From assembly GCA_938014885.1 (NCBI GenBank), contig CALLQI010000004.1, positions 94,578-158,577 of the forward strand: DNA of 64,000 bases, written 5' to 3'. The position numbers and the translations under genes are program-made. Source of the DNA: an uncultured bacterium (GTDB lineage: Bacteria > Planctomycetota > UBA8742 > UBA2392). The notes below the pieces were generated by a model that had not been told where the DNA came from, did not search any database, and saw only the letters and a program-made list of their open reading frames with translations. Positions 9,449 through 52,019 of the stretch are shown here, piece by piece (position 1 is the stretch's first letter; the number at the start of each line of letters is the position of its first letter).

Positions 9449-10744
9449 CTAAGCCGTGCTGGCCGCGGTCGCGAACACTTCTTCGATGCAATCGAGCGCG
9501 AAGTCCAGCTCGCTGGGCGTGGCCACAATCGGCGGCGTGAAGCGCAGCACCCAGTGGTGCGTGTCTTTCACGATCAGCCCTTGCTCCAGCAGCTTCTCTG
9601 CAAAATGGTGCCCGTCGGGGCCTTCGTGCGTCAGCTCAATCCCGAACATCAGCCCGCGGCCACGCACTTCCTTGATTCGCGGGGAATCGGCGGCGATGCG
9701 CTTCAGGCGCTCAAGCACGGCCACGCCTTTTTCGGCGGCCTGGCGAGGCAGGTCTTCATGCTCAATGGCGGTCAGTGCCGCCAGCGCCACGCAGCTTGAA
9801 ATCGGGCAGCCGCCAAAGGTGCTGCCGTGGCTGCCGGGCCCGAACAGGTCCATCAGCGCCGCGTCGGCAAGGATGCCGCCCACGGGCGCGAAGCCGCCGC
9901 TGACACTCTTGCCAAAGCACAGGATGTCCGGCCGCGCGGAAGCGCCCTCGTGCTCCCACGCGAACAACTTGCCGGTGCGGCCCCAGCCAGTCTGCACTTC
10001 GTCCAGGATCAGCAGGAAGTTGTGCCTGCGCGCCAGTGCCTTCAGCCCGCTGAGGTAGCCCTGCGCGGGGATGTGAATGCCGCCTTCGCCCTGGATTGGC
10101 TCAACCATCACGGCCACGGTGTCGGGCGTGATTGCCATTTCGATTGCGGCCAGGTCATTGAACGGCACGCGCGTGAAGCCCGGCACGAACGGCCCAAAGC
10201 CGTCGCGCGCCGCCGTCTCGTCCGCATCAAACATCTGTGTCACGGTCAGCGTGCGGCCGTGGAAGCAGTGTTCCGCAAACAGGATCTGCGGCGTGCCCTT
10301 CACGCCCTTGACCCGCGCGCCCCAGCGCCGGGCCAGCTTGATCGCGGCCTCAGGGCCTTCGACACCGCCGTTGGCCGGAAGTACGCGCTCGAAACCGGTC
10401 ATGGCGGTGATCTTGCGGCCAAACTGCGCCAGCCACGGGTCGGGCAGGAAGCGGCCAAGCACTGTGGGTGCGTCGCTGTCGAGGAAGGCCTTCAGGGTTT
10501 CGCGCACCAGCGGGTGCCCGTGGCCCAGGTTGGCAGCCGAGTAGGCGGCCACACCGTCAAAGATGCGGCGGCCGCTGCGTGTGAACAGCCAGGGGCCTTC
10601 ACCGCGTACGATGGGGTCCAGGGTCAGCAGGCCGTAGTTGCGGGCCACGGTGGCCTGCAGGGTCGAAATGGTGTCCTCGGCGCTGAGGGCAGCGGTGTCG
10701 GTGAGCAGGCGGTGGGCAAGTTCGCGGGCGGTGTGGTGTTCCAT
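9449..10744 (-). CDS. Class-III (PLP) aminotransferase, ornithine/acetylornithine aminotransferase family
   Basis: Conserved PLP-aminotransferase blocks: ILDEVQTGWGRTG, and FGK-S with the Schiff-base Lys; length about 430 aa. Confidence 0.8.
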   Translation of the reverse strand: MEHHTARELAHRLLTDTAALSAEDTISTLQATVARNYGLLTLDPIVRGEGPWLFTRSGRRIFDGVAAYSAANLGHGHPLVRETLKAFLDSDAPTVLGRFLPDPWLAQFGRKITAMTGFERVLPANGGVEGPEAAIKLARRWGARVKGVKGTPQILFAEHCFHGRTLTVTQMFDADETAARDGFGPFVPGFTRVPFNDLAAIEMAITPDTVAVMVEPIQGEGGIHIPAQGYLSGLKALARRHNFLLILDEVQTGWGRTGKLFAWEHEGASARPDILCFGKSVSGGFAPVGGILADAALMDLFGPGSHGSTFGGCPISSCVALAALTAIEHEDLPRQAAEKGVAVLERLKRIAADSPRIKEVRGRGLMFGIELTHEGPDGHHFAEKLLEQGLIVKDTHHWVLRFTPPIVATPSELDFALDCIEEVFATAASTA

Positions 10745-12469: not shown

Positions 12470-14500
12470 TCAGTCGATCAGCTTCAGGCCGCGCGGCGAC
12501 AGGAATACCGCAAACGGGCGCCCCACGAACAGTTCGCGCTCGACGTAGGGCATGCGTTCGACCTGCAGATGTTCAATGTCGGCCAGGTTGATCCGCACAT
12601 AGCCGCCGCCTTCGGTGTAGAAGTCAATCGCCGCACGGCCCTGCCGGCGGGCGTGTTCCTTCAGCAGTGCCAGGGCCTTGGCCACGTCGCGGGCGTCAGC
12701 GCCTTCGGTGTCGCCGCGCTCGGCCGGCGTGAAGTGGGCTACCCGATACAGCATTTGCGAGGCGCTGTAGGTGTCGCCTTCGTTGATCGCGCGGGCCAGG
12801 ATTTCCATCAACGCGGGCTGGCTGGCGTGGTCCAGCGCGCCTGAGACTTCACTGTCCTTGAAGAACAGCGTCACCCGCGTCCAGAAGCGGCAATCGGCGC
12901 TGCCCGGCGAGTTGTCGCCCAGCACCAGGAAACGGTCGCCGTCCAGCCGCACGGCAAAGGGGTATTCGTCCAGGTCCGCCGGGCCGTCCAGCATCGTGCG
13001 GCCGACGTAGTACACGTCGCGATCAATCCCCAGCATCTTCACGGCGGCACCGGGGCCGATGCCCTTCAGCGCCAGCCGCGCTTTCCGGCCGCCGGGCGGT
13101 GTGGTCAGGGCCAGCCGGATCGCCTCTTCACTATCGAGTGCCATGCGCTTTTGCGCGTCGCGGGCGCGCAGTTGATCGAGCAAAGGTGAGCCGACGTCCA
13201 CTTCGGCCGCGGTCTCGCCGTCAAGCGCCACGCGCAGCAGGCCGTCCGCCAGCGAAAACTCGAGGACGAACTCGCCCGGGACCTCCAGTTTGGACAGCGC
13301 CCCGTCGGCCAGCGCATTGATGTTGCCGGTTTCGTCGCTGTGGGCCAGCGTTGCCCCGCCGCGGCCGGGGCCCAGCGTCAGCAGGTAGACGTCGCCGTCG
13401 CGGGTCAGTTGCACCGCAAGCTTGCCGTCTGAGGCCAGCTCAACCCGGGCGCGCAGGCGGATGTCCCCCACCACGCGGCGGCCGTAGAAGTCTTTGGGCG
13501 TTTCGACCTTGCCGAAGCTGGCGTCGTGATCCACGACGTCAGCGGGCTCGGCGCCCTTGCCGCGCGGGAACACGGCCTGCCCGTCCTGCTTCAGCGTGAT
13601 TACGCCATCGGCAAATGCGGCCGCGCCTTCGCGGTGGAAGTATTTGACCCAGTCAGAGGTTTCGGCCAGTTCATGCAGGATCGGCAGCCACAGGGTCTCG
13701 CGCGCTTCGCCATCTTTGCGCAGCAGGTTGATCGGCGCGGTATCGTGTTCTTTGACGTACACGTCGCCCTGGGCGATCAGCACCTGTTCGCCGGGCAGGG
13801 CCACGCAGCGCTTGACGTAGGGGTCGGTGCGGCGCAGCGGGTAGCGAAACACCACGGGCTCCCAGCGGCGGGGGTCGCGCCACTGGTAGGTGAATTTGTC
13901 CACGACCACGCGGTCGCCGTCAGTCAGGCTGCCGCGGCCGATGCTGCTGCCGATCAGCGTGGGCGCCATGCTGCCGGACGGGATCTGGAAGGCCTCAAGC
14001 GCGAAGTGCCACACCAGCAGCACGACCACCAGCGCCGCTGCCAGGCTTTCGATGTTGTCGAATATCTTGTCAACGAACGTGGGGTCTTTGGGGCGAATCT
14101 CGCGGCCCTTCACAAGCGCCTTTTCCGAAGCGCCACGCACCGCAAGCGCCGCCACGAATGCAAGCAGCCCGGCCAGGCTGGCAAAGCCCGACACGCGGTG
14201 CAGCGCCATCGCGAGCAGCGCGCAGCCCATCAGCGCCACCACCACGCCGCCGCGCGCGATGGGCGAAACGCCCTTGCGCCCCAGGTTCATGTACCACGAA
14301 GCCCCGGCCAGCAGCGGGATCAGCACCAGCACGGGAAAGCGCAGCCACACGCCGTCCAGGTGCGCGGGCATGAACAAGGCCACCAGCGCGCAAAGCCCAG
14401 CCAGCACGCAGGTGACGTCAGCGGCACGCCGCCGCCACGCGGGTTTTAAGCGCGCGTAGCCCTTCACGACGGGTTCCAGTTTGGCGTTTTCTTCAGCCAT
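12470..14500 (-). CDS. lepB: Signal peptidase I (S26) with an N-terminal multi-TM extension and a large inserted domain
   Basis: Box B IPSGSMAPTL (Ser nucleophile), box C GDRVVVDKF, box D VKRCVALPGE (general-base Lys), box E GDNSPGSADCRFW. Start at ATG 14500 (MAEENAKLEP). About 240 aa are inserted between boxes D and E. Confidence 0.75.
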   Translation of the reverse strand: MAEENAKLEPVVKGYARLKPAWRRRAADVTCVLAGLCALVALFMPAHLDGVWLRFPVLVLIPLLAGASWYMNLGRKGVSPIARGGVVVALMGCALLAMALHRVSGFASLAGLLAFVAALAVRGASEKALVKGREIRPKDPTFVDKIFDNIESLAAALVVVLLVWHFALEAFQIPSGSMAPTLIGSSIGRGSLTDGDRVVVDKFTYQWRDPRRWEPVVFRYPLRRTDPYVKRCVALPGEQVLIAQGDVYVKEHDTAPINLLRKDGEARETLWLPILHELAETSDWVKYFHREGAAAFADGVITLKQDGQAVFPRGKGAEPADVVDHDASFGKVETPKDFYGRRVVGDIRLRARVELASDGKLAVQLTRDGDVYLLTLGPGRGGATLAHSDETGNINALADGALSKLEVPGEFVLEFSLADGLLRVALDGETAAEVDVGSPLLDQLRARDAQKRMALDSEEAIRLALTTPPGGRKARLALKGIGPGAAVKMLGIDRDVYYVGRTMLDGPADLDEYPFAVRLDGDRFLVLGDNSPGSADCRFWTRVTLFFKDSEVSGALDHASQPALMEILARAINEGDTYSASQMLYRVAHFTPAERGDTEGADARDVAKALALLKEHARRQGRAAIDFYTEGGGYVRINLADIEHLQVERMPYVERELFVGRPFAVFLSPRGLKLID

Positions 14501-14560
14501 GGCGATGTGGTGAAGCAAGCTATATTGGCGCCCGTTTGGAACAACCGCACGGAGAGACAA

Positions 14561-15028
14561 ATGCTCAAGGCTGGCGACACCGCGCCCGACTTCAACCTGC
14601 CGGACCAGGACGAAAAGACGCACTCATTGAAAGACAATCGCGGCAAATGGGTCGTGCTGTTCGCATACCCCAAGGCCAACACCCCCGGCTGAACCAAAGA
14701 AGCCATTGCCTTCACCGGTCTGGTGAAAGACTTTGCCAAGCTGAACGCCGTCATCTACGGAATCAGCCCCGACAAACCCGCGGCCCAGAAAAAGTTTGAG
14801 GCCGACCACAGCCTGCGCGTGCCCTTGCTGTGCGACGTGGACAAGGCCGTAACCACGGCCTACGGCGCGTTCGGCAAGAAGATGATGTACGGCCGCGAGG
14901 TGCAGGGAATCATCCGCAGCACCTTCCTGATTGACCCCAAGGGCAAGCTCGCCCGCGTGTGGCCCAACGTAAAGGTAGACGGCCACGCGGAGGCGGTGCT
15001 GGTAGCGCTGAAAGAGCTGACGAAGTAG
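14561..15028 (+). CDS. bcp: Bcp-type 1-Cys peroxiredoxin with an in-frame TGA (14690..14692) at the peroxidatic Cys position; candidate selenocysteine protein
   Basis: Reads MLKAGDTAPDFNLPDQ...GKWVVLFAYPKANTPG-TGA-TKEAIAF...LIDPKGKL..., colinear with E. coli Bcp (...YFYPKAMTPGCTVQAC...). ORFs 14507..14692 and 14723..15028 are in the same frame, separated only by the TGA. GGAGAG lies upstream of ATG 14561. Confidence 0.6.
14711..14727 (+). other. SECIS-like hairpin 18 nt downstream of the in-frame UGA in bcp
   Basis: UUCACC-GGUCU-GGUGAA: a 6-bp stem with a GGU-containing apical loop, placed at the spacing expected for a bacterial SECIS. Confidence 0.4.
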
Positions 15029-15176
15029 GCGGGCAACAGACTGGCGACCAGATTCTGATTTCAGGCCAGGGTCGACAGTTCGCGGTCTCTCGGCTGTTTG
15101 TGGTAACCGTAGACTGCAAACCGTTAACCGTAAACCTTCGCGCTGACCGTGTTCGTCATGCACTTGCAGGCAATAG

Positions 15177-15210
15177 AAAACGGGCCAGCCGAAGCTGGCC
15201 CGTTTGCGTT
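15177..15210 (+). terminator. Bidirectional intrinsic terminator (bcp on + / secreted-protein gene on -)
   Basis: aaaACGGGCCAGC-cgaa-GCTGGCCCGTttgcgtt: a 10-bp stem flanked by an A-run and a T-rich tail. Confidence 0.6.
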
Positions 15211-15219
15211 GCGTATGAC

Positions 15220-16155
15220 TTACCAGTCGTAGTCGCTGACCCAGCCGGTGAACATGTTGCCGGCGTCCTTGTGGAAGTTGGCCGTGCCGTCGATGTCGAC
15301 GGTGACCTTGGTCGAGCGCTTGTTGGTTTCCCAGTCCATTTCTTCGCGGAAGCTGAGCACCAGGAAGGTGTTGCCCTTCTCTGAGCTGAACCAGTAAGCC
15401 AGCGAGTTGCCGTAACGGTTCAGCAGCAGGCGCGGCTTGGCGTTTTCGCCGCCGTTGCTGGCGATCTTGTTCAGGCGCTTGACCAGCAGGTCGTACGGGT
15501 CGGCACCTTCCTGCACGCCGCTGAGCAGATCCAGCGTCGAGGTCTGCCACTCGTCGAGGTGTTCCTTCAGCTTGGCGCCGTCGGACTTGCCCACGGCCTC
15601 GCGGATCGCCTTCACGCCCGGGGCGTTGTAGTCGATGCGGTATTCGTAGGGCGAGCCGCTGGTCAGGAACCAGTTGTAGACCTTCTTGTCGTCTTCGGCT
15701 TCCGGCGCAATGCGTGAGGTCTTGACCAGATGGGCCATGTCGCCGTTCTTGACCACGACGATGGCGTAGTTGCCGACCTTGCCCTGCTCAATGGCCATCA
15801 TCTGTTCTTCGTTCCATGCGGCCAGCACACCGGCCATCACCTGGATGTTGGTCTGTTCGCCGTCGCCGTCCCAGGACTTCTCGTCCAGGTAGTCGCGCGC
15901 GTCTTCCGCGATGCAGCTCTTCAGCCCGGCCATGTCCTTGGCCTTGGCGGCCTTGATGGCCTTGGTCAGCACTTCCGTCGGCGACTTGTGGCCTTCGGCG
16001 GTGCCTTCCTTGATCACCAGCTCTTTGACCGAGGGCACTTCGCCCATCAGCAGTTGGGTGCTTGAACCCTTGTTTTCATCCGCGTTAGCGGGCGACACAA
16101 TCGCGAAACTCATGGCCAGCGCCGCAGCGCCGGTCAGCATCAGCATCCTGCTCAT
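15220..16155 (-). CDS. Secreted hypothetical protein (about 310 aa)
   Basis: Start at ATG 16155 (MSRMLMLTGAAALAMSFAIVSPANA signal peptide) preceded by AAGGGGA. No family recognised. Confidence 0.55.
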   Translation of the reverse strand: MSRMLMLTGAAALAMSFAIVSPANADENKGSSTQLLMGEVPSVKELVIKEGTAEGHKSPTEVLTKAIKAAKAKDMAGLKSCIAEDARDYLDEKSWDGDGEQTNIQVMAGVLAAWNEEQMMAIEQGKVGNYAIVVVKNGDMAHLVKTSRIAPEAEDDKKVYNWFLTSGSPYEYRIDYNAPGVKAIREAVGKSDGAKLKEHLDEWQTSTLDLLSGVQEGADPYDLLVKRLNKIASNGGENAKPRLLLNRYGNSLAYWFSSEKGNTFLVLSFREEMDWETNKRSTKVTVDIDGTANFHKDAGNMFTGWVSDYDW

Positions 16156-19455: not shown

Positions 19456-20673
19456 CTACTCCTTCACCTTGTACTGCTCACGATCAAACAGCGACGCCAT
19501 GTACGCGATCAGCGCATCGACCTCGGCGGGCTTCAGGTTCGGGAATGCCACCATGGCGCTGCCCGGGCGGCCTTCCTTCAACACGCGGCGCACTTCATCG
19601 GGGTGATACAACCGGTCGCGGAAGTGCTTCGGCGCCGGGCCGCCGGCAAACGACTTCGACATCGCGGCCGGGACGACTCCGTTTTCACCGTGGCAGGCCT
19701 GGCACTGCGTGCGGTACAGCTCGCGGCCTTGCGCCAGCACGGCTTCGCTGGCCTTGGCGGGGGCCAGCGCCGGCTTCAGCGCGGGCTCGCCCAGCGCGTT
19801 CACGTACTGGCTGAGCGCCCACAGGTCTTTCTCGGTCAGTTCGGCGAAGCTTGGCATGGCGCTGCCTTCGCTGCCCATGAACAGGATGCGGAACACTTCC
19901 TCGCGCGGCAGATAGCGCTTGGTCAGGTCGCTCGCGCCGGGCTTCAGGAAGTCAATCGCCAGCCCCTTGCCGTCGCCGGCCGTACCGTGGCAGCCGCTGC
20001 AGTAGTGCTGGAAAAGCTCCGCCCCGCGTGTGGCCTGTAACTCGGTGGCCTCGGGCGCGCCGGAGACCGTCACGCGGTCCGGCCACACCTGCTTGCGGAC
20101 TTCTTCTTTGAAGTGGATGCCGAGGTATTGCAGGTAGGCAACCAGGTCAGTGGCCTTTTCCGTGGGGATCCAAGTGTCGCCCTGCTGCTCAAACAGCCAC
20201 GAGTACTTGGGCATGATGCTGCCGGGCACGGTGGTGCGCGGGTTCCACAGGTGGGCGAGGTGCCAGTCGTCGCTGCGGCGACCTGCTTCGCGGCTCAGAT
20301 CCGGGCCGATGCGCCGCGTGCCGTACAGTTGCGGCACGTCGTGCATGGCTTCCCAGGCCTGGCTGCGCGGGCCGTAGCGGAACTCTTCGTTGGCGACCGG
20401 CCTCACGAACTGGCTGTGGCAGTGCCAGCAGCCCTCGGCGATGTAGATTTCGCGCCCGCGGCCGATGGCGTTGAGCTCGCCGTTTTCGTCAACGTAGGGG
20501 TTCACGAATTCTTCGGGTGGCTCCTGCCCGATTACGCTTAGCCACGGCAGAACGCCCATGGCCACGAACGACAGCAGAAAGAAGCCCACACCGGCCACGA
20601 GCAGCACAAACATCGGGCGCTCGGCTTTGCCTTCGGCGGGGGGCTTCGTGTGGTTATCGGCGGCTTCAGCCAT
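19456..20673 (-). CDS. cbb3-type cytochrome c oxidase fused CcoO/CcoP subunit (three heme-c sites)
   Basis: An N-terminal TM helix, then CWHCHS (CcoO-type monoheme), followed by CSGCHG and CQACHG (CcoP-type diheme). Start at ATG 20673 with GGAGG upstream; overlaps the ccoN stop by 8 nt. Confidence 0.85.
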   Translation of the reverse strand: MAEAADNHTKPPAEGKAERPMFVLLVAGVGFFLLSFVAMGVLPWLSVIGQEPPEEFVNPYVDENGELNAIGRGREIYIAEGCWHCHSQFVRPVANEEFRYGPRSQAWEAMHDVPQLYGTRRIGPDLSREAGRRSDDWHLAHLWNPRTTVPGSIMPKYSWLFEQQGDTWIPTEKATDLVAYLQYLGIHFKEEVRKQVWPDRVTVSGAPEATELQATRGAELFQHYCSGCHGTAGDGKGLAIDFLKPGASDLTKRYLPREEVFRILFMGSEGSAMPSFAELTEKDLWALSQYVNALGEPALKPALAPAKASEAVLAQGRELYRTQCQACHGENGVVPAAMSKSFAGGPAPKHFRDRLYHPDEVRRVLKEGRPGSAMVAFPNLKPAEVDALIAYMASLFDREQYKVKE

Positions 20674-22072
20674 TGGACACCTCCAGGCCAACTTTGCCGT
20701 TCTTGACGAAGAACAGATTCCAGACCAGGAACACCATGCTGAGCATCAGGAACACGCCGCTGATCGCGCGGGTCATCCAGAATGGCATGGCGGCCTCGAG
20801 CGAATCCTGCAGCGGCAGGGTGGTCAGCCAGAAGAAGCCCTGCATCAGGCCGGCGATGGTGTCCGGGATGTAGTACAGCACCCAGAACGCGATGAGCGTG
20901 ACCCAGAAGTGCGCCTCGGCCAGTTTGCGGTTGTAGCCCCGGCCGGTGATGCGCGGCCAGATCCAGTAGATGAAAGCGTACAGCCACCAGCTGAACACAC
21001 CGAACAGCGCCAGGTGCGCGTGCGCCACAACCCAGTCGGTGAAGTGCACCACCTGCTGCACTGATAGCAGCGCGTGGAACGGTCCCTGGGTGCAGGTCAC
21101 GATGTAGTTGAACAGGCCAAACGCCAGAAAGCGCAGCGGGATGTCGCTGGCAAGCTGGCTCCACTTGCCGCGCATGGTGGCAAAGAAGTTGTAGACCACG
21201 CTGTAGACCACGAAGATCAGCGTGAAGGTCAGCGGCACCGCAAGCATCTGCAACCACCAGGGCACCGGGCTGTAGAAGTAGTGGTGGCTGCCGCCCAGCG
21301 GGTAGAAGAAGGCCAGTGTCCAAAAGCCCAGCAGGCTCAGCTTATGGCTGGCAATCGGCTTCTTCAGCACCACGGGCAGCAGGTAATATATGATCGCCGC
21401 GCCCATCGGCGTCACCCACAGGCCCACCGCGTTGTGGATCCACAGGCCCGACAGCGCAGCCCCGGCCGCACCGGGCGCCACGAATGCCACGATGCTGTTG
21501 GCCATCACGAAGTTCAGCGCGGTGAAGATGAAGCCGAGAATCAGGTACCACGCGCTGACGTACAGGTTGCGCACGCCGGACAGCAGGATCGTGCCCACGC
21601 AGGAAACCAGCGTCGCCACGAAGCAGACGGCAAACGCGGCGTCGGCCCACCACGGGGCCTCAGTGTGTTCCACGGCCTGCGCGTGGCCCATCAGGATCGC
21701 GCCGCCGCCCAGCACCAGCGCCACCTGTGTCAGCGGCGCAAAGATCTTGGCCAGCTTGGGCAGAAACAGGTCGCGCCCCACCAAACGCGGGATCGCGTAG
21801 TAAGCGAACGCAAAGAACCCGTTCGTCAGCCACCCGAAGATCACGCTGTGCGTGTGGAACATGCGGATGCGGCCGAAACTCAGCGCGGCCGAATCGCCCA
21901 AAAACTCGGCGGCCTCGGGGCTGGTCAATCGATAACCCATCAGCGTGCCGCCAAGCATGCCGATGCCCAGCCACACGATGGCCGCAACGATATGGAATTT
22001 GACCAGTCCCAACTGGTCGGTTGGTGCGCGAACGGGCTTTGCAGGCGCGTCCTTGGGCTCTGTCTCCGGCAT
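20666..22072 (-). CDS. ccoN: cbb3-type cytochrome c oxidase subunit I
   Basis: 12-TM heme-copper oxidase with CcoN-like blocks (HTHSVIFGW, WVVAHAHLALFGVF). Start at ATG 22072 (MPETEPKD) with GGAGAG upstream. Confidence 0.9.
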   Translation of the reverse strand: MPETEPKDAPAKPVRAPTDQLGLVKFHIVAAIVWLGIGMLGGTLMGYRLTSPEAAEFLGDSAALSFGRIRMFHTHSVIFGWLTNGFFAFAYYAIPRLVGRDLFLPKLAKIFAPLTQVALVLGGGAILMGHAQAVEHTEAPWWADAAFAVCFVATLVSCVGTILLSGVRNLYVSAWYLILGFIFTALNFVMANSIVAFVAPGAAGAALSGLWIHNAVGLWVTPMGAAIIYYLLPVVLKKPIASHKLSLLGFWTLAFFYPLGGSHHYFYSPVPWWLQMLAVPLTFTLIFVVYSVVYNFFATMRGKWSQLASDIPLRFLAFGLFNYIVTCTQGPFHALLSVQQVVHFTDWVVAHAHLALFGVFSWWLYAFIYWIWPRITGRGYNRKLAEAHFWVTLIAFWVLYYIPDTIAGLMQGFFWLTTLPLQDSLEAAMPFWMTRAISGVFLMLSMVFLVWNLFFVKNGKVGLEVSNG

Positions 22073-22119
22073 GGCTCTCTCCGTGCGGGAATCGCTTCTG
22101 CACGGATACTGGCAACAAT

Positions 22120-22215
22120 CACGGCGCAATACAAGTAACTATAAAAAGGATAAAATAGCCCTAGTAACTCCTATATTTTGAATCCCTGTTATGTCTTTGA
22201 ACACATCTTTAATCG
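22120..22215. promoter_or_regulatory. AT-rich divergent promoter island between ccoN (-) and xseA (+)
   Basis: acaagtaactataaaaaggataaaatagccctagtaactcctatattttgaatccctgttatgtctttgaacacatctttaatcgc is sharply AT-rich in an otherwise high-GC sequence. It contains a direct repeat of AGTAACT. Confidence 0.35.
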
Positions 22216-37822: not shown

Positions 37823-38311
37823 GTGCCACGCTTGCCCGCTGTGGATGCATACATCGAAAAGGCCCAGCCGTTCGCCCGGCCAATTCTGAGAAAGCTGCGC
37901 GAGGTGATGCACAAGGCCTGCCCCGAGATCGAAGAGAAGATCAAGTGGGGCGTGCCGGCCTTTGACCACAAAGGGCCGCTAGCAGGCATGGCGGCTTTCA
38001 AGGCGCACGCAAGCTTTGGTTTCTGTAAGGCCAAACTGATGAAGGACCCGCAGCGCCTCTTCAACCCGGACGAAAAGGGAGGCATGTGGGGCGCGCGCAT
38101 CGCAAACGTGAAAGACCTGCCGCCCGAAAAGGTGCTGATCGCGTACATCAAGGAAGCCATCGCCCTGAATGAAAAGGGCATCAAGGCCACGCGCGAGCCC
38201 ACCAGTAAACCCGTGCCGAAAATGCCCGCCCATATGCTGGCCGCGCTGAAGAAGAACAAGCCCGCGCTGCAGACCTTCGAGGCCTTCCCGCCCAGCCACA
38301 AACGCGAGTGA
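37823..38311 (+). CDS. DUF1801/YdeI-OmdA family protein interrupted by an in-frame TGA; the conserved C-terminal motif continues to 38425
   Basis: GTG 37823 follows GGAGG. The product ...PSHKRE-TGA-IEWITEAKQEATREKRLKHAIEWMAEGKPRNWKYMKR; the segment after the TGA matches the conserved OmdA C-terminus (..reYvEWIeeAKkpETRakRi..). Possibly a pseudogene. Confidence 0.5.
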   Translation: MPRLPAVDAYIEKAQPFARPILRKLREVMHKACPEIEEKIKWGVPAFDHKGPLAGMAAFKAHASFGFCKAKLMKDPQRLFNPDEKGGMWGARIANVKDLPPEKVLIAYIKEAIALNEKGIKATREPTSKPVPKMPAHMLAALKKNKPALQTFEAFPPSHKRE

Positions 38312-38853
38312 ATCGAATGGATCACCGAGGCCAAGCAGGAAGCCACGCGCGAGAAACGCCTGAAGCACGCCATCGAGTGGATGGCTGAAGGCAAGCCCCG
38401 CAACTGGAAGTATATGAAGCGCTAAGCATGCGGCCGGATGATGCACCGGGGGCAGCACCGGGCTAGAATGCCACCATGGAATACCTGCTGCTTGCGCTGA
38501 TCGGCATCCCCGCCTGCCTGCTGGCCCTGGTGGTGCTCTTGCTGGTCACAGGGGTGATCCGCGACCCCAGCGGAGCCGGCCTCGTAGCAGCCAACTACCG
38601 ATCAAGCTGGCTGCAACGCCGCAGCTGAACCCCAGACAGCACACACAACGCGGCATCGACATCCCTGCCGGTGGCGTGCTCATGCGCTTCCAGCGCATGC
38701 GCCGGTTGGAAGCCGCTGAAACGCCACGGATTGGGATGCAACGCCATGCGGAAACCCTTCATCGCGGATGGCGATCCCGGGATGAATCCACTCCCGCGCA
38801 AGCGTTGCTATAACGAACACCGCGCAAGGGCACGGGGTTGGATGGGGCGTACC

Positions 38854-49969: not shown

Positions 49970-51721
49970 TCAGTTGGCCTTGCGTTCTGTGGCCAGCGCG
50001 GCCTCCAGCGTCGGGTGGAAACTCAGTTCACCCGGGGCTTCTTCGATGTGCGCCTTGGCCATGGCACGCCGAGGTTGCGGGCAGACCCCCACCATGCACA
50101 CGCGAACACCCTGAGAGCGCAGCTTGCCCAGCAGGCTTTCCAGCGCGACCAGGCCGGTCACGTCCATGGCCGGGACCGCGTGCATATCCAGCACCAGCAC
50201 TTTCTCACTGCCGGTGGTCTGGATCGCGCTGATGGCTTTGTCGGCCGCGCCAAAGAACAGCGGACCCGCGATCTCGTAAAGCATCACGCCTTGCGGCAGC
50301 GGCTCACGCGCGGCGGCCCCATTGCCGACCACGCGCGCGCCCGAGATTTCAGCCATGCGCCGCATGAACAGCAGCGCGGCCAGCACAATGCCCACGCTGA
50401 CCGCAATCACCATGTCAAAGACCACCGTAAGCGCAAAGCAAAGCAGCAGCACCACCAAATCGCTGCGCGGGGCCACGCGAAGCATGTGCACGAAGTGCTT
50501 GGCGTCGCTCATGTTCCAGGCCACCACCAGCAGCAGCGCCGCCAGACCCGCCATCGGCAGATAGCCCAGCACCGGTGCCAGCGCCATTACTACCGCCAAC
50601 AGGAACAATGCATGCGTCAGGGCCGCAATTGGGCTGCGCCCGCCGTTGCGCACATTGGTTGCGGTACGGGCGATCGCGCCCGTGGCCGCAAATCCGGCAA
50701 AGAAGGGCGCCACCAGGTTGCCCAGCCCCTGGCCCACGAGTTCCGCATCGGGGTCATGGCGTGTGCCGGCCATGCCGTCGGCGACGACGGCTGAAAGCAG
50801 CGATTCAATGGCACCCAATGCCGCAATGGCAAATGCGGGGCCGATCAGCGCCCGCACCAGCGCCCAGTCCATATGCAGCGGCTGCCCATCCGGCCCCGGC
50901 AGCGACCAGGGCAACACCGGAAGCGGCGGCAACTGCGGAATGCCGGGCATGGTCACGCCATCCTTCACGTAGCTGAATCGACCAGCGATGGTCGCCGGCT
51001 GCACGCCCGCGAACTCGGACAGTGCATAGGCCAGGCCCGCCGCCAGCGCTATGGCCACCAGCGGGCCAGGGATCTTGCGGGTGATGCGCGGCCACACCAG
51101 CAGCAGTGCCAGTGTCACGCCGCCGACCAGCGCGTCGGCCCACGAAACGGAGGGCATGGCAGATGCAAGGTCGGCAATGCGGTTCCAGTAATGGTCGCCG
51201 CTGGGCGTGACGTTCAGCCCAAGAAAGTCCTTCACCTGCAACGTGGCGATCACTACGGCAATGCCCGCGGTGAAACCCGTCGTAACCGGGTAGGGCACAA
51301 ACTGCACCAGCTTGCCCAGCCGCGCCAGACCCATCACGACCAGGATTGCGCCCGCCATCAGCGATGCCAGCGCAAGCCCGCCCAGCCCGTACTGGGCGGA
51401 AATCGGGGCCAGCAGCACCACAAACGCCGCTGTCGGGCCTGAGACGTTCAGTCGGCTGCCGCCCGTTACGGCAATCAGCCCGCCCGCGACAATGGCCGTG
51501 TACAGCCCGTGCTGCGGCGGCACGCCGGACGCAATCGCCAGCGCCATCGCCAGCGGCAGCGCCACGATGCCCACGATCACCCCTGACACGATGTCAGCCC
51601 GCAGTTTGCGGCCGCTGTAGCCTTCGCGCAGCGTGCCGCGCAACGCGGTCGCAAACGGGAAAGTACGCCACTGGCCCGCCGCCACGTGGCGGCGACTTCG
51701 CTGAGGTTCTGTGCCCGGCAT
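49970..51721 (-). CDS. SulP-family anion (sulfate/bicarbonate) transporter with a C-terminal STAS domain
   Basis: Multi-TM SulP core (GLYTAIVAGGLIAVTGGSRLNVSGPTAAF) and a STAS domain; start at ATG 51721. Confidence 0.85.
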   Translation of the reverse strand: MPGTEPQRSRRHVAAGQWRTFPFATALRGTLREGYSGRKLRADIVSGVIVGIVALPLAMALAIASGVPPQHGLYTAIVAGGLIAVTGGSRLNVSGPTAAFVVLLAPISAQYGLGGLALASLMAGAILVVMGLARLGKLVQFVPYPVTTGFTAGIAVVIATLQVKDFLGLNVTPSGDHYWNRIADLASAMPSVSWADALVGGVTLALLLVWPRITRKIPGPLVAIALAAGLAYALSEFAGVQPATIAGRFSYVKDGVTMPGIPQLPPLPVLPWSLPGPDGQPLHMDWALVRALIGPAFAIAALGAIESLLSAVVADGMAGTRHDPDAELVGQGLGNLVAPFFAGFAATGAIARTATNVRNGGRSPIAALTHALFLLAVVMALAPVLGYLPMAGLAALLLVVAWNMSDAKHFVHMLRVAPRSDLVVLLLCFALTVVFDMVIAVSVGIVLAALLFMRRMAEISGARVVGNGAAAREPLPQGVMLYEIAGPLFFGAADKAISAIQTTGSEKVLVLDMHAVPAMDVTGLVALESLLGKLRSQGVRVCMVGVCPQPRRAMAKAHIEEAPGELSFHPTLEAALATERKAN

Positions 51722-52019
51722 GGCTGATGCGGCGGCTTCTGGGCGCGCCGTACTCCGGCGCAAGGCGGCTGTGCGTGACGCTCGTCAGCCCGTCTGCGGT
51801 CGCCGCGACAATCGCGCGGCACAACGGCATCATAGGGGCAGGAAGGCAGGCTGCAACCAGCCCGCCAACGTAGAGGACGCGGCTGGTCCTGTTCCCGCAC
51901 GCAGCGCTGCAAACCCGAGCCGCTGCTACCCGTTTGCATCGGCGGCCAGCCTTGCTATCTTTCCGCCCAATCAGCAAGGCGAGGCGACGTGGAACGAAGT
52001 GGAACCAGGACCAGCACAT

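Follow-up and report, generated by a model that had tools for sequence, protein, structure and literature searches.

A probable selenocysteine-containing PrxQ/Bcp-type peroxiredoxin gene with an in-frame UGA at the peroxidatic position in a Planctomycetota lineage

A gene in a 64,000-nt stretch of Planctomycetota DNA, here termed the window, was found very probably to encode a selenocysteine (Sec)-containing peroxiredoxin of the PrxQ/Bcp type. Coordinates are window positions unless a locus, denoted by L and a number, is named. On the forward strand, positions 14561 to 15028 form one reading frame of 155 codons that runs from an ATG at 14561 to a TAG at 15026–15028, and the sole in-frame TGA (14690–14692, codon 44) stands at the peroxidatic position. 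A Shine–Dalgarno-like GGAGAG was read from the sequence at 14551–14556 on the same strand, 4 nt before the ATG, and the intergenic stretch up to the ATG showed no difference between the window and two further loci, L001 and L002. An original prediction, made from the letters of the window, had named the locus a candidate selenoprotein gene and had described two same-frame open reading frames (ORFs; 14507–14692 and 14723–15028) as together encoding a full-length Bcp. The full-length Bcp frame was upheld, but the GTG start of the upstream ORF is arbitrary and the real start is the ATG at 14561. The selenoprotein candidacy is supported by the alignment of the TGA with Cys, by the conservation of the TGA, by purifying selection and by a hairpin associated with Sec forms.

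To place the protein, the read-through product was searched with Cys at codon 44. It matched the Pfam profile AhpC-TSA (PF00578) with an E-value of 5.2e-40 (136.7 bits against a cut-off of 26) over profile positions 2–122 of 124, and the Redoxin profile also matched it (E=2e-22). The top NCBIfam models were PrxQ (160.8 bits) and the PRK09437 thiol peroxidase (Bcp; 131.8 bits), both under their equivalog cut-offs, and no NCBIfam model reached its own cut-off for the window protein. The nearest solved structures were Xanthomonas campestris BCP entries (E=3e-33 over residues 21–152), and the protein could be aligned end to end with 155-amino acid Bcp/PrxQ proteins that have Cys in column 44 (P0001–P0011). 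Judged by its translation, the Pfam match, the end-to-end alignment and the X. campestris BCP structures, the coding sequence (14561–15028, forward strand) is complete, and the window protein is assigned by homology to the BCP/PrxQ subfamily of peroxiredoxins.

The active site was examined in an alignment of the read-through protein with its 19 best database homologues. The TGA column is the invariant peroxidatic Cys in the 18 full-length homologues aligned (P37xxxT41xxC44), which bears out the earlier claim that the TGA stands where Bcp proteins have this residue. The corresponding motif in the window protein is P37-K-A-N-T41-P-G-U44, within a read-through segment ANTPG-U-TKEAIAFTGLVK, and the same alignment shows an invariant catalytic Arg (R119) and a nearly invariant T41. 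On the evidence of this Cys column, and of the conservation of the TGA among alleles and species, the triplet at 14690–14692 (forward strand) is annotated as a putative Sec codon at the peroxidatic position of a T41-P-G-U44-T motif. The resolving Cys of 2-Cys Bcp enzymes had also been described as missing. This too was confirmed, as no Cys is present at either the +5 or the helix-3 position, the former being Ile49 and the latter a Glu aligned with Cys84 of Xanthomonas BCP. Ile49 is the equivalent of Cys50 in Escherichia coli Bcp. The sole Cys in the window protein, C90, is not conserved. The empty resolving-Cys positions place the protein in the 1-Cys-type subgroup, still within the family.

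In every assembly examined, the gene was called as a 43-amino acid ORF and a 101-amino acid ORF. A database cluster of 101-amino acid fragments (at least 90% identity) begins at the first GTG past the TGA and includes the window copy, whose own 101-amino acid downstream ORF is recorded in NCBI/ENA as part of a 469,213-bp contig. An allele set was compiled from the window and 10 contigs of 10 different ENA/SRA samples (L001, L002, L167 and L168–L174), and all 11 contigs, representing 5 distinct alleles, were found to carry TGA at codon 44. Past the TGA, the window and L001 differ at 27 codons, 26 of them synonymously. Across all allele pairs, the Nei–Gojobori ratio of nonsynonymous to synonymous differences per site (pN/pS) downstream of the TGA was 0.00–0.12, with pS as high as 0.33 and pN no higher than 0.024. 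The coding sequence on both sides of the TGA is under purifying selection, which is strong downstream.

As the alternative to recoding, the original prediction had offered a base-call error or a recent mutation of TGC to TGA. Both are refuted by the 5 alleles on 11 contigs from independent assemblies, by the occurrence of the TGA in other species and by the low pN/pS. For a sequencing or assembly error at base 14692, nothing speaks beyond the prior that single-base errors occur, and the same base is present in the 10 other contigs, which come from different runs and assemblers, and in 8 species-level metagenome-assembled genomes (MAGs), leaving this explanation a negligible probability. A pseudogene, in which bcp was inactivated by a nonsense mutation too recently for the remainder of its frame to have decayed, was considered extremely improbable. 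One base change from TGC or TGT would suffice, TGC is the codon of the closest full-length homologue (P0001/L163, 82% identity), and the window does hold one real TGA pseudogene (the ydeI-like gene described below). Against these points, the TGA is common to the 5 alleles and to 10 more distant relatives in the clade, the downstream pS and pN values given above are those of a constrained frame, no frameshift or second stop is present, and T41 and R119 are intact.

The distribution of TGA across species was examined in a GTDB scan, using one genome per species, and in a metagenome scan. The nearest GTDB relatives are Planctomycetota MAGs with 66–74% amino acid identity, of which 8 of 10 have TGA (L003–L006 and L009–L012) and 2 of 10 have TGC (L007 and L008). 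Among 80 relatives from the metagenome scan, 17 have TGA, 62 have TGC or TGT and 1 was unscored. Within the same Planctomycetota Bcp clade, TGA was found in ten further, more distant relatives, 8 of them GTDB species genomes and 2 from metagenome contigs, and the gene neighbourhood of the window is kept in at least 9. Cys-form orthologues, which use TGC or TGT at codon 44, are single 155-amino acid proteins. Loci with TGA and loci with TGC or TGT have in common an S26 signal-peptidase-like (lepB-like) gene divergently upstream, and a 322-amino acid unannotated ORF and an acyl-CoA dehydrogenase gene downstream, and are therefore regarded as positional orthologues, some with Sec and others with Cys. 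A neighbor-joining tree, calculated without support values, intersperses Sec forms with Cys forms, which suggests several Sec/Cys switches within the clade.

Conservation immediately past the TGA was used to weigh whether this codon could be a true stop. The ten codons between the TGA and a GTG at 14723 (codons 45–54) have their amino acids conserved across species, and codons 45–50 (TKEAIA) vary synonymously among 12 Sec-form sequences while their amino acids are kept, with the exception of one A-to-D replacement at codon 50. As these codons lie ahead of any restart codon, their conservation points to translation past the TGA. A split gene, in which the UGA ends a 43-residue peptide and a 101-residue protein is re-initiated at GTG 14723, is accordingly hard to reconcile with a pattern that is expected only if codons 45–54 are translated. 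The gene callers do annotate just these two ORFs, and the GTG is in frame, 30 nt past the stop; on the other hand, neither piece would have a peroxidatic residue, the GTG lies inside a conserved hairpin with no obvious ribosome-binding site, and the Cys-form orthologues are undivided. This explanation was judged highly improbable.

The hairpin in question had been predicted 18 nt past the TGA as UUCACC-GGUCU-GGUGAA, and precisely this structure (7 pairs, GGUCU loop) was returned as the RNAalifold consensus of the 12 Sec-form sequences. The candidate bacterial selenocysteine insertion sequence (SECIS) element spans 14709–14729 on the forward strand, as delimited by the consensus, by its pairing and by invariant codons, with a core stem of 14711–14716 paired to 14722–14727 (UUCACC/GGUGAA). 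The apical loop GGUCU (14717–14721, forward strand), the presumed SelB contact, has G at its first two positions and begins 24 nt (14693–14716) past the UGA. An extra C14709–G14729 pair is possible across a C-A mismatch, and relatives with AAG for AAA at codon 56 form 7–8 bp. When scored over the 12 Sec forms, 94% of hairpin cells were paired, compared with 30–56% when the 3′ partner was slid.

Codon usage in the Sec forms also sets this segment apart. F51-T52-G53-L54-V55 is the only run of five columns without synonymous variation, 23 of 96 degenerate conserved columns being single-codon overall. The non-preferred codon GGT at Gly53 is fixed in all 11 Sec forms that have Gly there, whereas all other invariant Gly columns use GGC. 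Loop bases 2 and 3 (G and U) are invariant in 12 of 12 Sec forms, and the first G is found in 11 of 12, L012 having A. Among distinct Cys-form orthologues, the stem or the GGU is gone in 3 of 4: L163 (GGC..GCA), L007 (ACG GGA) and L008 (TTT..GGC..CAC). The hairpin is therefore borne out both as a consensus of Sec forms and by its degradation in most of these Cys forms, and is interpreted as a putative SECIS-type element conserved at the RNA level specifically in Sec forms.

A model of bacterial SECIS elements has an apical loop of 3–9 nt, an upper stem of 4–16 bp, a G at one of the two positions that open the loop (G[G|U] pattern), a distance of 16–37 nt from the UGA and an energy of at most −7.5 kcal/mol (PMC13188914, Fig. 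2A). The window hairpin has a 5-nt loop, a 6-bp stem, G at the loop start and a spacing of 24 nt. Its description as bacterial SECIS-like in the original prediction therefore holds for the loop, stem and spacing rules, but the structure taken alone does not rise above chance: the minimum free energy (MFE) of 14685–14760 compared with shuffles gave z=−0.19, and a Watson–Crick hairpin of at least 6 bp that obeys the same loop and spacing rules follows approximately 3.4% of all TGA triplets in the window, a share that rises to 17–21% with G-U pairs. The hairpin alone is no more than chance, folding of the single sequence was discarded as a test, and it is the comparative evidence that lifts the finding above chance. 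In 10 of the 11 other Sec forms folded, the MFE of the whole segment, which includes the hairpin or its core, was −8.2 to −16.0 kcal/mol, and the hairpin pair probability was at least 0.95 in most relatives.

Several results weigh against the selenoprotein assignment and the SECIS candidate. The energy of the window hairpin is −7.2 kcal/mol (ViennaRNA), 0.3 kcal/mol short of the model threshold because codon 56 is AAA and not the AAG of most relatives. In a context of 50–60 nt, the window allele prefers a competing fold, with a hairpin pair probability of 0.04–0.29. In this allele only, the 3′ arm can pair instead with a downstream CUUUGCC (GGUGAAA/UUUGCC, 14722–14738), and this pairing dominates the predicted ensemble, whereas most relatives, with AAG at codon 56, favour the SECIS hairpin. 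No compensatory covariation was found in the stem within the clade, the stem being invariant, and the support is thus one of conservation only. The Cys-form orthologue L164 (Logan SRR33696285, 4157–4624), which uses TGT, retains TTCACC GGTCT GGTGAA, for which no hairpin was predicted by RNAfold in a 50-nt context. It could have reverted from Sec to Cys very recently, or its hairpin could be pre-adapted, and its example indicates that conservation of the hairpin sequence may partly reflect amino acid or codon constraints. Finally, none of selA, selB, selD and tRNA-Sec was found in the 64-kb window or in the approximately 160 loci fetched, an absence that is expected by chance; such genes would be expected in other parts of a genome of several megabases.

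The searches behind this last point were of several kinds. Neither the window nor 25 loci yielded a tRNA-Sec, no SelA, SelB or SelD was detected by Pfam among the 30 largest window genes, and tblastn searches with E. coli SelA, SelB and SelD gave no match in the window and 162 loci, the database build having been shown to work by a positive control. Rfam gave no match at gathering thresholds over the window, and a permissive search of 14450–15250 returned only chance-level matches and none to a bacterial SECIS family, which is uninformative either way. Several Planctomycetes are reported to possess gene sets for Sec insertion (PMC4807772).

That Sec machinery was not observed would suit a UGA read through with a residue other than Sec, by near-cognate Trp or Cys or by a local suppressor, without SelB. 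This was nevertheless considered very unlikely. TGA terminates 23 of the 52 genes delimited in the window, and therefore no genome-wide reassignment has taken place, in agreement with the earlier statement that TGA is an ordinary stop elsewhere in the window and that any recoding is local. In addition, the position is that of a redox-active Cys, at which Sec and Cys as a rule replace one another, the hairpin conserved specifically in TGA forms fits a SelB-type SECIS, and a Trp in place of the peroxidatic residue would leave the enzyme inactive.

A scan of the window for same-frame ORF pairs or extensions across TGA with high G+C content at third codon positions returned only bcp and a gene of the ydeI/OmpD-associated family (37823–38425, forward strand). 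In the latter, a TGA at 38309–38311 takes the place of a Tyr that is conserved in all homologues (REYIEW), and the 37 codons past it are still almost identical to homologues. The gene was considered as a second recoded gene and rejected, since P0241, a relative that clusters with it at 90% identity, is a full-length protein with Tyr in place of the TGA, and the window copy also has replacements at conserved residues (Cys for a conserved Trp, and His at a Tyr/Phe position). It is most likely a young pseudogene rather than a case of recoding, in contrast to bcp.

From these data a mechanism may be proposed for the Sec-containing peroxiredoxin. Translation would start at ATG 14561. With UGA 14690–14692 in the A site, the hairpin at 14711–14727 would lie just downstream of the ribosome, where its GGUCU loop is expected to recruit SelB-GTP-Sec-tRNA(Sec). 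Sec would be inserted as residue 44 and translation would continue to the TAG at 15026, giving a product of approximately 17 kDa, whereas without selenium or SelB it would end after 43 residues. In the product, U44 would replace the peroxidatic Cys in a canonical site (P37xxxT41xxU44 and R119), and its selenolate would attack peroxide to yield a selenenic acid. Because both known resolving-Cys positions are empty, the oxidised Sec would most likely be reduced directly by an external thiol reductase of the thioredoxin or glutaredoxin type, as in 1-Cys Bcp enzymes. SelB binding, the insertion of Sec, the reductant and a genomic set of selA/B/C/D are inferred.

TGA forms are not confined to the clade of the window gene, as two unrelated Bcp clades were also found to contain them, each with its own hairpin and a GGU-containing loop that starts 18–19 nt past the UGA. 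The first comprises sequences from Binatia, ‘delta proteobacterium’ and Syntrophobacter (L043, L052, L054, L056, L058, L061, L063, L066–L069, L072 and many of L106–L161). Its motif, TPG-U-TKEAC-GF, retains the +5 resolving Cys, because of which these proteins should form an intramolecular selenenylsulfide. The hairpin of this clade is GCUUGCG-GGUUC-CGCGAGC, and a sub-group with a CCGUGAU 3′ arm keeps the pairing via G-U wobbles. The second clade, from Bacteriovoracaceae and Desulfomonilia (L070, L071 and L076), has the motif TSG-U-TRQAVSV and the hairpin CGUCUC-GGUCA-GAGACG. TGA-form Bcp is abundant in public MAGs.

Irregular bcp copies were also seen among the loci collected. In a Sumerlaeia MAG (L042, approximately 9997–10120), a truncated copy of the first ~40 bcp codons stops just short of the active-site Cys and lies directly upstream of a complete Cys-type bcp. 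In two other MAG loci (L079 and L080), the Bcp frame is lost at or shortly past the active site, probably through frameshift errors or as pseudogenes.

Peroxiredoxins with Sec are an established class, as the original prediction had stated. The family, catalogued as ‘Prx’ (PF00578, TxxU), comprised 12 proteins in a 2006 survey (PMC1794560) and 91 proteins in 78 organisms in 2016 (PMC5029168), and is listed as a selenoprotein family in a 2026 review (PMC13188914). PrxU of Eubacterium acidaminophilum and the Prx proteins of Syntrophobacter, Anaeromyxobacter and Geobacter likewise have the AhpC-TSA fold, a UGA in PxxxTxxC and Cys-form homologues, and in this family, as in the window gene, the SECIS hairpin is situated within the coding region just past the UGA. 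A Syntrophobacter MAG locus (L052) is itself a TGA-form relative of the window protein. Compared with the PrxU type, however, the window protein is a BCP/PrxQ (41 bits to the NCBIfam PrxU model, whose cut-off is 270), and in contrast to the Sec-containing proteins just named it comes from a Planctomycetota lineage, with a gene that is split by gene callers. It further differs from the Binatia/delta-type Sec-Bcp (TPG-U-TKEAC) in being without the +5 resolving Cys. The Cys-type BCP/PrxQ enzymes, such as Xanthomonas campestris BCP (PDB 3gkk, 5iiz and others) and E. coli Bcp, have the same length, the YPKxxTPGxT motif and the catalytic Arg, but have a peroxidatic Cys where the window protein would have Sec, and both resolving-Cys positions are empty in the latter.

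A close comparison for the RNA element is the SECIS of E. coli fdhF, the archetype of bacterial SECIS elements, which is likewise an in-frame hairpin immediately 3′ of the UGA, with an apical GGUCU(G) encoded by GGU-CUG (Gly-Leu). Its sequence was checked and found at 100% identity in 5413 E. coli records. The G and U of the fdhF loop contact SelB. In the window, by comparison, the loop starts 24 nt past the UGA (18 nt in fdhF), and the stem is a simple helix of 6–8 bp of unrelated sequence, with neither a bulged U nor a long lower stem.

A search of the literature library found no paper in it naming a Sec-containing Bcp/PrxQ, or a Planctomycetota one, specifically, such proteins being catalogued as ‘Prx’ only. 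The gene adds to a known selenoprotein family; its value lies in annotation and evolution, and it does not change what is known of selenoproteins. For annotation, it represents an intact antioxidant selenoenzyme that is recorded as fragments or as a pseudogene, and its presence would imply that the Planctomycetota lineage of the window decodes Sec. For evolution, the syntenic Sec and Cys orthologues form a tidy data set on Sec/Cys interconversion and on the gain or decay of SECIS elements. A more tentative proposal, for which the odds are seen as unfavourable, is that the Planctomycetota subclade constitutes a mechanistically distinct ‘1-Sec’ PrxQ whose selenenic acid is resolved directly by a reductant, with no resolving Cys, and that its positional orthologues have exchanged Sec and Cys on several occasions, with decay of the SECIS after each reversion. 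If true, these repeated switches would offer a natural experiment on what Sec costs oxygen-respiring organisms and what it gains them.

The surroundings of the gene were also examined. No sigma-70-like promoter was found in 14300–15300, and one antisense terminator-like site there was at chance level. The S26 signal-peptidase-like gene (12470–14501, reverse strand) is unusually long, with approximately 676–717 amino acids of which only residues 190–296 match the Pfam domain, and it divergently adjoins bcp in all Planctomycetota relatives examined, whether of the Sec or the Cys form. Genes for a cbb3-type cytochrome oxidase, which encode a COX1 protein resembling CcoN and a fusion of FixO with c-type cytochrome domains, lie at 19456–22129 on the reverse strand; because of their presence in the window, the organism is suggested to respire oxygen, which would provide a context for a Sec-dependent peroxidase. 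The isolate names of MAGs from this Planctomycetota lineage hint, as we read them, at wastewater or activated sludge. A SulP-family anion permease with a STAS domain is encoded at 49970–51763 on the reverse strand; SulP transporters sometimes come up in discussions of selenite or sulfate uptake.

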